The notes below the pieces were generated by a model. It saw only the letters and a list, made by a program, of their open reading frames with translations. It did no database searches and was not told the origin of the DNA. 64,000 nt of DNA from an uncultured Chloroflexia bacterium (GTDB lineage: Bacteria > Chloroflexota > Anaerolineae > Anaerolineales > UBA4823): contig CAVPYB010000012.1 of assembly GCA_963709875.1 (NCBI GenBank), positions 545,154 to 609,153 of the forward strand, written 5' to 3'. Shown here piece by piece: positions 55,307 through 57,088 of this stretch. The position numbers and the translations under genes are program-made. Position 1 is the first letter of the stretch, and each line of letters starts with the position of its first letter.

Positions 55307-55855
55307 ATGGTTCCAACCAACACCATCGACCGCACTGTTGACCCGGTAGAAGTGCTCCGGGAGGCGATCGAGTGCGCCTGGGGGGCGATCTGCCAGAGCT
55401 ACGACCTCTCGGCCTGCCTGCCGGATATGCCGACGCTGTTCGCGCGGGTTGACCTCTCCCATCCCAATCAGGCGGCGGAAGCAGTCGTCGTTGTCATGCT
55501 GCAGGAAGCGATCGAGTTGGTGGGGCGCTTTTCGCCCTGGTACAAACAGCCGGCGCGCGCCTTCGGGTTGACCTCCACCCGCGACCTGCGCACCCGGCAG
55601 ATGAAGTGGATGCTGGCGCCCGAGGCGGTCCAGCGCTGGCAGCCGATCCTGGCGCCGCTGGCCAATGCCATCCGCAAGTACCGGGGCCTGATCCGCGCCA
55701 TGGTGCTGGTGGATGACCTGATGGCCGATATTGAGTCAGACCCCTGCATCATCGCCAGATGCCAGTGCGCCCCGCCCCACACCATCCAGATCCGTAAATC
55801 CGTGCTGGTAAAAGCCGAGATCTTGTGCGAGAGGTGCTTGCAGCCTTATATTTAA
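55307..55855 (+). CDS. Hypothetical protein with C-terminal CxC...CxxC motif
   Basis: 182 aa with a GGGGAGG RBS. I recognise no family. The C-terminus is ARCQCAPPHTIQIRKSVLVKAEILCERC. Confidence 0.5.
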   Translation: MVPTNTIDRTVDPVEVLREAIECAWGAICQSYDLSACLPDMPTLFARVDLSHPNQAAEAVVVVMLQEAIELVGRFSPWYKQPARAFGLTSTRDLRTRQMKWMLAPEAVQRWQPILAPLANAIRKYRGLIRAMVLVDDLMADIESDPCIIARCQCAPPHTIQIRKSVLVKAEILCERCLQPYI

Positions 55856-55930
55856 TGCCGCACAAACGCTGCGCATTTCAACAAAAGTGGGGTATGAGCC
55901 AGGAGGGTAGAGAGGGGTCGATAATCCAAG

Positions 55931-57088
55931 GTGTGGGAAGTACCTTATACCACTTTTGCCATCCTTCATACGCGAGCGGATAAACACTTCGCCGATCGTC
56001 TTGGTGCATCCATCCTGGCTGGCATTTTCGAAGCTGATGTCACACAGTGGGAATATCAGTATGATATTTCGCTCGTCCAGCAGATCAACAATATCCTGGA
56101 AGAGTCAGATATTCTCATGTTGGTTAGCAACCAGGCTTTGGTTAAGTCGTGGTGGCTGCGCAGAGAGTTAAGCTTAGAACAGAGAAAGAAAATAACTCAG
56201 TACAAGTATAGTTCCGTCTTCGTGGCGGCTCATAATTGCGATTACCCAATCGAATTGTGGACATTTGAAGGAGCACATTTTTCTGATCCGGAAGACGATT
56301 TCAGACGCGGCTGTTCCACGCTGTACGATAATCTACAAAAACAAATGATCTTCGAGTCCATAATGGTCCCGATTCCGGCGGGCGAATTTATCATGGGCAG
56401 CGACCCTGAAGCCGATATGCTCGCCAAGGATGCTGAGCTTCCCCAACACAGACTACATCTACCAGCTTACTGCATAAGCAAACACCCGATCACCGTCCAG
56501 GAATTCCGAGCTTTCGCCCTGGACACAGACCGGAAGGACCAGCTCAGGCAGCTCCCAAAACACAAGTACAACCACCCTGTCGTCGCGGTGAACTACTTTG
56601 ACGCCAGGGATTACTGCCGGTGGCTGACTGAGAATACCGGCAGGTTCTACCGTTTGCCCACTGAAGCCGAGTGGGAGAAAGCTGCCCGCGGCACGGATGG
56701 TCGCATCTTCCCCTGGGGAAATGAGTGGGAACAGGCAATCTGCAATACTCGTGAATACGACTTGGGGACAACACTCCCGGTAGGTCACTTCTCACCAAGA
56801 GCGGACAGCCCTTACGGTGTCTCGGAAATGGCAGGCGGAGTGCTGGAGTGGACGAGTTCGCTGTGGAGTACCGATGATAAATTCCTCGATCCGCAGTTCG
56901 GATATCCATATAGTCCGACAGATGGACGCGAAGCAAGTGAAATTCATAATTACAACTGGCTCGTTATGCGCAGCGGCTACTTCAAAGTAGGGTACCAGTC
57001 GGCACGCTGCGCCCACCGCTGGAGATACCTGGCGAAGACACGTAAATGGAGCGCTGGATTCCGGGTAGTGGCCCCGGGTCCAGGATAA
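55931..57088 (+). CDS. TIR-like domain fused to FGE-sulfatase (SUMF1/formylglycine-generating enzyme-like) domain
   Basis: N-terminal ~130 aa: TFAILHTRADKHFADRL...ESDILMLVSNQALVKSWWLRRELS (TIR-like beta-alpha pattern with a Glu). The C-terminus has IPAGEFIMGSD, HPVVAVNYFDARDYCRWL, YRLPTEAEWEKAARG, GGVLEWT and GFRVV. Confidence 0.75.
   Translation: MWEVPYTTFAILHTRADKHFADRLGASILAGIFEADVTQWEYQYDISLVQQINNILEESDILMLVSNQALVKSWWLRRELSLEQRKKITQYKYSSVFVAAHNCDYPIELWTFEGAHFSDPEDDFRRGCSTLYDNLQKQMIFESIMVPIPAGEFIMGSDPEADMLAKDAELPQHRLHLPAYCISKHPITVQEFRAFALDTDRKDQLRQLPKHKYNHPVVAVNYFDARDYCRWLTENTGRFYRLPTEAEWEKAARGTDGRIFPWGNEWEQAICNTREYDLGTTLPVGHFSPRADSPYGVSEMAGGVLEWTSSLWSTDDKFLDPQFGYPYSPTDGREASEIHNYNWLVMRSGYFKVGYQSARCAHRWRYLAKTRKWSAGFRVVAPGPG

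Follow-up and report, generated by a model that had tools for sequence, protein, structure and literature searches.

A solitary TIR-FGE-sulfatase fusion gene inserted beside an Hdr-MetFV gene cluster in an Anaerolineae genome

FGE-sulfatase domains ("FGS," C-type-lectin-like) recur in prokaryotic conflict systems under a strict syntax, in which the other domains of the protein are always N-terminal (PMC7159879). They have been proposed to bind or sense invader molecules directly (PMC7159879, PMC8195603) and, by Kaur et al., to serve also as neutralizing effectors (PMC7159879). FGE or C-type-lectin (CLec) sensors accompanied by TIR or CHAT domains are diversified by diversity-generating retroelements (DGRs) (PMC10907252), and receptors of the STAND/Avs type likewise use FGE-sulfatase sensors (PMC13581612). 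Here we examine a gene with this pairing of effector and sensor, termed TIR-FGE in the following, located at 55931..57088 on the forward strand of a 64,000-nucleotide stretch of DNA (the window) from an uncultured Chloroflexia bacterium, together with the gene for a 182-amino-acid (aa) protein that precedes it (55307..55855, +). The original prediction, made from the DNA alone, had joined the two into a candidate conflict or defense module, drawing on the precedent of the FGE-sulfatase domain as a proposed ligand sensor and of TIR as an effector. The literature does indeed propose FGS as a sensor of invaders that carries effectors N-terminal to it (PMC7159879, PMC8195603).

The analysis leads to a different arrangement. 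TIR-FGE is read as a solitary, recently acquired gene of a predicted immune-sensor class and the 182-aa gene as the separate companion of an Hdr-MetFV gene cluster, with no functional tie between them, a joint reading to which we assign a probability of about 0.6. TIR-FGE is a somewhat degenerate example of a known and widespread architecture, an effector followed by a C-terminal FGS domain, without nucleoside triphosphatase (NTPase), DGR, or partner.

The two domains of TIR-FGE

TIR-FGE comprises 385 residues and begins with a GTG codon, which corresponds to an ATG in the alignment with its closest relative (L005). Its N-terminal domain (residues 5-140; 55943..56350, +) is a TIR domain, as first proposed, and a divergent one. 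Pfam TIR_2 (PF13676) matches residues 10-124 of the whole protein at 28.1 bits, a borderline score for a cut-off of 28.0; the value is 30.7 bits with residues 1-140 alone and 30.4 bits in a six-frame search of the genome. The AlphaFold2 model of TIR-FGE has a mean predicted local distance difference test (pLDDT) score of 66 (about 70-84 in the first 80 residues, lower after them) and displays a five-strand beta-alpha pattern in the TIR part. Re-alignment of model residues 5-140 to solved structures with VIA gives Z scores of 12.3 for BtTir, 11.6 for both PdTIR and TcpB/BtpA, 10.8 for AbTir, and 10.6 for the SPARTA TIR, with TLR1/2 at 9.4-9.7. When 20 TIR-FGE proteins are trimmed to their TIR segments, the resulting profile matches PdTIR, AbTir, and BtTir at E ~1e-18. 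The searches proposed at the outset, with profiles and a predicted structure of the N terminus, have therefore both come down on the side of a TIR fold, through the TIR_2 match and Z scores of 10.6-12.3 against bacterial TIR domains.

The candidate catalytic glutamate of the original prediction can be placed as E79, the last residue of a WxxxE motif (56153..56167, +) whose W75 lies four residues ahead. E79 is invariant in 28 of 28 aligned TIR-FGE homologs, and in a profile alignment the W-x-x-x-E of the family falls on the W..YE segment of AbTir, with W75 and E79 opposite W204 and E208; AbTir numbers for window residues were assigned by eye via this alignment. In AbTir, W204, E208, S140, and D167 are all needed for NADase activity, and the equivalents of S140 and D167 are needed in both AbTir and TcpC (PMC11374754). 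At four otherwise conserved positions the window clade differs from the other TIR-FGE proteins, and these substitutions, together with a TIR_2 score of only 28 bits, count against an NAD-degrading effector: L12 occupies a site that elsewhere holds S or C (AbTir S140), D36 the site of a conserved W (AbTir W165), T38 the site of a D (AbTir D167), and D45 the site of the BB-loop G. Because four family-conserved positions are lost, two of them required in AbTir, NAD+ cleavage by the window TIR appears uncertain, W75 and E79 being kept and other needed residues replaced. The window clade could form a different nucleotide product or have taken on an adaptor role, its WxxxE remaining intact.

Both domains are under purifying selection. 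The ratio of nonsynonymous to synonymous divergence (dN/dS) between the window gene and that of L005 is 0.18 in the TIR part and 0.20 in the FGE part, and the comparison with a further relative, L001, gives 0.19 for each. That the TIR domain still matters to the cell is also what the main rival to an enzymatic reading would predict. According to this rival, TIR-FGE is a conflict protein with a non-enzymatic TIR, either an adaptor that recruits other TIR proteins or a lectin-like neutralizing binder or decoy. Such a role would account for the loss of four conserved positions, two of which are needed for NADase activity in AbTir and TcpC; the genome holds three other, better-scoring TIR_2 genes, and the proposal of FGS as neutralizing effectors by Kaur et al. 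offers a model for the binder. The retention of W75 and E79 as an invariant pair and the lack of an adaptor partner encoded nearby argue the other way, and we consider this alternative rather unlikely, if the most serious competitor.

The remainder of the protein (residues 145-380; 56363..57070, +) is matched by Pfam FGE-sulfatase at 143 bits across profile positions 5-254 of 255. The description of a complete FGE-sulfatase/SUMF1 domain accordingly holds for the fold as a whole; it does not extend to the active site, where both catalytic cysteines of true FGEs are absent. True formylglycine-generating enzymes (FGEs) carry two copper-binding catalytic cysteines in a GGS-x2-C-x4-C motif ahead of RYRCA. 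In both the window protein and the 28-sequence alignment, no Cys occurs between R347/G349 and C360, the interval from the GGS equivalent to RCA, as judged by eye against this motif. The structural pair C229 and C360 is retained. Because the catalytic pair is absent, the domain is predicted to be a lectin-like binding module and not an FGE. The solved folds closest to the model are those of PvdO and ToxD (Z 12.6 each), followed by CalU17 (11.0) and human FGE (10.6); identity to ToxD is 29-36%, and the C-terminal 68 residues have no relevant match in the PDB. No DGR template repeat for the C terminus of the FGE domain is present in the genome, a result obtained with no search for a reverse transcriptase.

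The identity of these solved relatives gives some room to a second alternative, in which the FGE-like domain would be an enzyme (of the SUMF1/EgtB/PvdO type or ToxD/CalU17-like) and the gene a metabolic one with a TIR-like regulatory or nucleotide-binding appendage. Database names of relatives read "SUMF1/EgtB/PvdO family nonheme iron enzyme," and several relatives lie amid housekeeping genes. Several features make this improbable. The protein has neither the catalytic Cys pair nor a DinB-like iron-binding domain, its neighbors include no biosynthetic genes, and all NCBIfam equivalogs score far below their cut-offs (EgtB, the best, at 76.6 bits versus 360, and PvdO at 71 versus 500). Members of the same FGE clade also occur joined to CHAT, caspase, EAD, and kinase domains, and the distribution of the gene is patchy and of the insertion type.

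A lineage-specific insertion beside a conserved gene

TIR-FGE is a single-gene, lineage-specific insertion within this genus, situated between the Hdr-MetFV cluster and a convergent gene for an FAD-dependent oxidoreductase (57102..58535, -). The latter, identified as an open reading frame (ORF) and by the Pfam assignment of its L002 ortholog, forms the right flank and is syntenic in loci L005, L006, and L007, which come from three species of the window's genus (genomes G201, G202, and G203, respectively). Within the genus, the site is filled in two species, that of the window (genome G000) and that of L005, and empty in two, those of L006 and L007. The empty sites keep hdrCB, the 182-aa gene (74-76% identity), the FAD oxidoreductase gene on the reverse strand, orf251, two STAS genes, and RsbU, and lack TIR-FGE; the DNA missing from them corresponds to window positions 55856..57101 (strand not applicable). 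The 182-aa gene of L006 stops at 10546, with ~54 nt left before the oxidoreductase gene ends at 10600; the corresponding gap in L007 is ~8 nt. The search for direct or inverted repeats flanking the insertion yielded only matches of chance size. Beyond the window genome, this type of TIR was found in one of four other genomes of the genus, whereas 36 genomes from elsewhere in the family and order yielded none.

The base composition of the insertion bears out the initial observation that the fusion gene is less GC-rich than its surroundings. GC content falls to 0.47-0.49 across 55750-56500, compared with ~0.62-0.65 on either side. TIR-FGE has a GC content of 0.518 and a GC content at third codon positions (GC3) of 0.58 (0.45 and 0.50, respectively, in the TIR part), as against 0.61-0.63 and 0.75-0.84 in neighboring genes, among which the 182-aa gene has a GC3 of 0.84 and the oxidoreductase gene one of 0.75. 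In L001, the contig and the relative it carries both have a GC content of 0.51. Because a gene of ~0.52 GC sits within a lineage of 0.60 GC and matches L001 in this respect, its donor is taken to be one of lower GC, probably about 51%. At synonymous sites, the window and L005 have diverged to much the same extent in TIR-FGE (0.46-0.54) as in the 182-aa gene (0.45), from which it follows that the insertion is older than the split of those two species.

The history of the neighboring 182-aa gene is another one. A scan of species-representative genomes with an alignment of the 182-aa family returned 28 loci, all in metagenome-assembled genomes (MAGs) of Chloroflexota/Anaerolineae, which were then compared by tblastn with intact FlpD/MvhD, MetV (DUF5981), MTHFR, and HdrCB (Fer4+CCG) from a metagenome locus, L004. 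The 182-aa gene directly follows hdrCB in all 27 loci that include upstream DNA, as well as in L002-L004. TIR-FGE follows the 182-aa gene in one locus of the 28, L005, and in two Logan contigs (L002 and L003), which together represent a single lineage at 83-90% identity.

The converse search gave a consistent picture. A hidden Markov model (HMM) of the 182-aa family, run over 842 kb from 85 loci that surround relatives of FGE or TIR-FGE type, had no match. Outside the lineage, the nearest TIR-FGE is P0008 (64% identity), flanked by genes for a methyltransferase and a beta-lactamase-fold protein, and six other relatives occur in housekeeping surroundings, next to IS110, ParA, and antirepressor genes, flanked by an integrase gene and an HTH_3 gene, or in a tandem TIR array. 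No partner gene is shared over these seven distinct contexts, the number on which the statement rests, as the TIR-FGE alignment scan gave mostly FGE-only proteins; fusions are a minority of FGE proteins in species-representative genomes (four in 80 loci).

These distributions bear directly on the two-gene module of the original prediction, a Cys-rich partner acting with a sensor-effector in conflict or defense. In its favor, both ORFs are as initially described (182 aa at 55307-55855 and 385 aa at 55931-57088, according to the ORF list and translations), they are intact and on the same strand, only 75 nt separate the stop of the first from the start of the second, and the adjacency is retained in L005, L002, and L003. 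Those three loci, however, belong to one close lineage (83-90% identity), so that adjacency is confined to the nearest relative; the 182-aa gene occurs without TIR-FGE in 26 other loci and is tied to hdrCB in 27 of 27; the site is empty in genomes of the same genus; and no member of the 182-aa family turns up in the seven TIR-FGE contexts or in the 842 kb surrounding relatives. The GC3 values of the two genes are also far apart (0.84 versus 0.58). Co-occurrence, which had been suggested as a means to check, and if need be refute, the association, amounts to one of 28 loci in one direction and 0 of 85 in the other. A functional module is on this evidence most improbable, and the two genes are unrelated, with separate histories and no functional tie.

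The 182-aa gene and the Hdr-MetFV cluster

The MetFV-HdrABC-MvhD methylene-tetrahydrofolate reductase cluster is known from the acetogen Moorella. In the 27 loci with upstream DNA, the genes follow the fixed order mvhD-(GNAT)-metV-metF-hdrCB-182-aa gene, and in sampled class genomes that carry the 182-aa gene (including G009 and G179) it lies ~3 kb from metV each time. The 182-aa gene is thus the conserved last gene of one subtype of Anaerolineae MvhD-MetV-MetF-HdrCB cluster. In the window, hdrCB (Fer4 + CCG; 53779..55178, +) is split by frameshifts, the intact HdrCB of L004 matching it by tblastn as three pieces in different frames. The same holds for metV and metF, so that the three genes (51989-55178) are each divided over different frames, their orthologs in L004-L006 being intact. 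The splits may be indel errors of long-read sequencing; the window genome, of 5.25 Mb in 14 contigs, is 88% complete. As had been remarked from the outset, the 182-aa gene and TIR-FGE are whole beside this disrupted block.

The loci vary around this conserved core. In the window and six other loci, mvhD and metV are separated by a GNAT acetyltransferase gene, which in L004 (6804-7367) instead follows the 182-aa-family gene. L005:10885-12424 holds two tandem orf251 paralogs (94% and 48% identity), compared with one in the window (58642-59397). Most loci have a stem-loop behind the stop codon of hdrCB, within a spacer that is variable and not conserved in sequence; it is found at 55235-55260 in the window, with equivalents in L004, L006, L009, and L030 and, in L004, a T-run after it.

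The family of the 182-aa protein comprises 91 unnamed clusters at the 90% identity level, with lengths of 171-192 aa and identities of 44-92%; an exhaustive profile search recovered 90 clusters among 1.84 billion representatives. The gene is preceded by a good Shine-Dalgarno sequence (GGGGAGGG) and is under strong purifying selection (dN/dS 0.13). The AlphaFold2 model (pLDDT 86.7) has beta-hairpins at 147-151 and 159-163. Four cysteines, C152, C154, C174, and C177, are invariant in 24 aligned sequences and make up a zinc-ribbon-like motif (55760..55837, +) whose spacing is CxC-x19-CxxC, correcting the x20 first given. One family member, P0218 (L117:188-1255), is fused to a C-terminal CBS domain pair.

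The original description of this protein as one of no recognizable family holds for direct searches, as neither Pfam, NCBIfam, nor PADLOC matches it; at the level of profiles, a conserved family with a candidate distant similarity to SprT-like proteins emerges. Comparison with hhalign to two distant SprT-like proteins (P0300 and P0302), recovered in the exhaustive profile search, gives probabilities of 97% and 96.9% over ~122 columns. The HExxH of these relatives aligns to Q66-E67-A68-I69-E70 (55502..55516, +) and their third His to the invariant S76. In the 24 sequences, E67 is nearly invariant, position 66 is variable, and no His is conserved at the zinc-site positions. The correspondence extends to the "...F..A..FGL" segment that comes next and to the Cys motifs at the C terminus, and among the AFDB clusters the top match, to the protein's own unnamed family, is followed by weak "SprT-like" entries at E 1e-3. 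From these alignments, we describe the 182-aa protein as a probable SprT-like domain devoid of all three zinc-binding His, with a 4-Cys zinc ribbon behind it. Since HExxH has become x-E-x-x-E/Q and the third His is Ser, the protein is not expected to carry out metal-dependent catalysis. A winged-helix fold is not claimed: a Foldseek search of the PDB with the model returned weak MarR-type rows only (E of at least 0.07, template modeling score 0.2-0.3), and leads resembling a helix-turn-helix in the Atlas feature search were below 0.85.

This assignment and the association with the cluster do not go unopposed. Pfam was searched to E<=1 without a match, a VIA search of the model over 48,161 chains found nothing at Z>=5, and, of the two SprT-like comparison proteins, one passes the Pfam threshold (26.8 versus 25.6 bits) and the other falls below it. 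Of 201 class genomes sampled, three carry the 182-aa family and 133 carry metV; the family is therefore dispensable for the cluster.

The 182-aa protein is probably an accessory factor or regulator of the Hdr-MetFV cluster that would act by binding and not by catalysis. It might instead belong to the Hdr-MetFV complex as an additional, stoichiometric subunit or assist in its assembly, for example by delivering or holding metal through its four Cys. Strict adjacency to hdrCB and the invariance of the Cys would suit such a function, as would the second metV-metF pair encountered right after the 182-aa gene in L020, L022, and L026. The stem-loops that most loci have after hdrCB and the variable spacer speak against it, as does the absence of the family from most metV-bearing genomes, and a structural role is put forward only as a tentative alternative to the accessory one. 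The second pair itself is divergent (~42-44% identity to the first) and lies directly 3' of the 182-aa-family gene, at L020:11102-12430, L022:2668-3996, and L026:4605-5933.

TIR-FGE among known systems

The bare TIR-FGE fusion is less unusual than it had seemed: both Pfam domains are present in ~45 of the 120 best database matches, most of them 380-445 aa long. The window genome contains six FGE-sulfatase and four TIR_2 matches, which coincide only in this gene. Some TIR-FGE relatives lie in integrase or IS110 islands, and one (P0098) belongs to a tandem array of TIR genes whose C-terminal domains vary. In this array (L124:1333-7794), P0098 shares its strand with TIR-pentapeptide-repeat genes and another TIR gene, and the whole has the look of a TIR effector set in which the C-terminal domain can be exchanged. 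A different elaboration is seen in a Candidatus Parabeggiatoa MAG (L083:571-6732), where a single frame of 2054 aa encodes six tandem TIR domains and then one FGE-sulfatase domain. Outside the window, in its own genome, two TIR_2 genes with much better scores (55 bits for an open frame of 827 aa and 100 bits for one of 528 aa) are found less than 6 kb apart at G000:C1:13273-19109, a possible defense locus. Plasmid and phage collections gave matches to the FGE domain only, with no record covering 80% of the TIR-FGE protein, and public sequencing runs contain no more than 6% of the words sampled.

The observed features of TIR-FGE, that is, its domain identities, its solitary insertion, the purifying selection on both parts, and the lack of a partner gene, invite a mechanism for which we infer a ligand, oligomerization, and NADase activity. 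By analogy with the systems introduced above, the lectin-like domain would bind a foreign macromolecule, either protein or glycan and probably multivalent. Multivalent binding would gather the TIR domains of several molecules, which might cluster and oligomerize, and the assembled TIR domains would either cleave NAD+ or recruit other TIR proteins and so stop the infected cell. A more general and more tentative proposal is that two-domain TIR-FGS proteins are NTPase-free, single-chain pattern-recognition receptors, in which binding to a repetitive phage or other foreign surface would by itself cluster the TIR domains into an active assembly.

A number of findings tell against an immune-sensor function. 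Oligomerization without an NTPase is, at this stage, a pure postulate of the mechanism. The TIR part has no match in PADLOC-DB 2.0 other than PglZ at chance level (E 0.047), so that PADLOC, which the original prediction had suggested running, finds no defense match for either the TIR part or the 182-aa protein. No defense genes flank TIR-FGE here, and three relatives are situated amid housekeeping genes. Our literature search found no paper in which a two-domain TIR-FGS protein was tested.

The consequences of these results are several, and none overturns current views. Adjacent, intact, same-strand genes such as these would pass for a defense operon, and recognition of their separate histories and functions avoids an annotation error. 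The filled and empty sites inside one genus constitute a natural experiment on a solitary TIR-lectin gene and a starting point for asking whether such minimal fusions, lacking an NTPase, confer protection from phages. Were the NTPase-free receptor proposal true, the TIR immune repertoire would have in these proteins its most compact sensor-effector design. The 182-aa family gains a first, probable placement near a distant family and a firm link to one genomic setting, which may interest students of the electron-bifurcating Hdr-MetFV complex.

Comparison with described systems places each gene in a known setting and marks where it departs. The cluster upstream of the insertion resembles MetFV-HdrABC-MvhD in carrying the same Pfam families (FlpD/MvhD, DUF5981/MetV, MTHFR, and Fer4+CCG), here in a fixed order, and differs from it in that a subset of the Anaerolineae clusters ends in the extra 182-aa gene. 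To our knowledge, no such gene has been described for the MetFV-HdrABC-MvhD complex. In profile comparison, the 182-aa protein resembles SprT-like proteins (PF10263) along the helix that carries HExxH, the "...F..A..FGL" segment, and a Cys-rich C terminus, and is unlike them in lacking the zinc-site His and a Pfam match and in its fixed position beside hdrCB in Anaerolineae.

With human SUMF1, bacterial FGEs, ToxD, CalU17, and PvdO, TIR-FGE has in common the Pfam domain, the fold, and the structural Cys pair C229/C360; it differs from FGE in the absence of the copper-binding catalytic Cys pair. Its TIR domain resembles those of AbTir, PdTIR, BtTir, and TcpB/BtpA (PDB 7uwg/8g83, 3h16, 7uxr, and 4lqc, respectively) in fold (Z 10.8-12.3) and in its WxxxE motif, and is unlike the bacterial TIR NADases in the L12, D36, T38, and D45 substitutions, in the lack of a coiled-coil, and in its fusion to a lectin-like domain instead. 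STAND/Avs FGE sensors (PMC13581612) and the CLec/FGE targets of DGRs (PMC10907252) employ the same kinds of sensor and effector, but, unlike these systems, TIR-FGE has neither a central NTPase to drive oligomerization nor DGR hypermutation. It belongs with the FGS conflict proteins (PMC7159879, PMC8195603), with which it shares a C-terminal FGS, an N-terminal effector, a patchy distribution, occurrence in a lineage of filamentous type (Anaerolineae), and a predicted role as an intracellular sensor. From those systems it is set apart as a solitary two-domain gene, with no DGR template repeat and with flanks that hold no STAND, MoxR-vWA, GTPase, or EAD adaptor gene.

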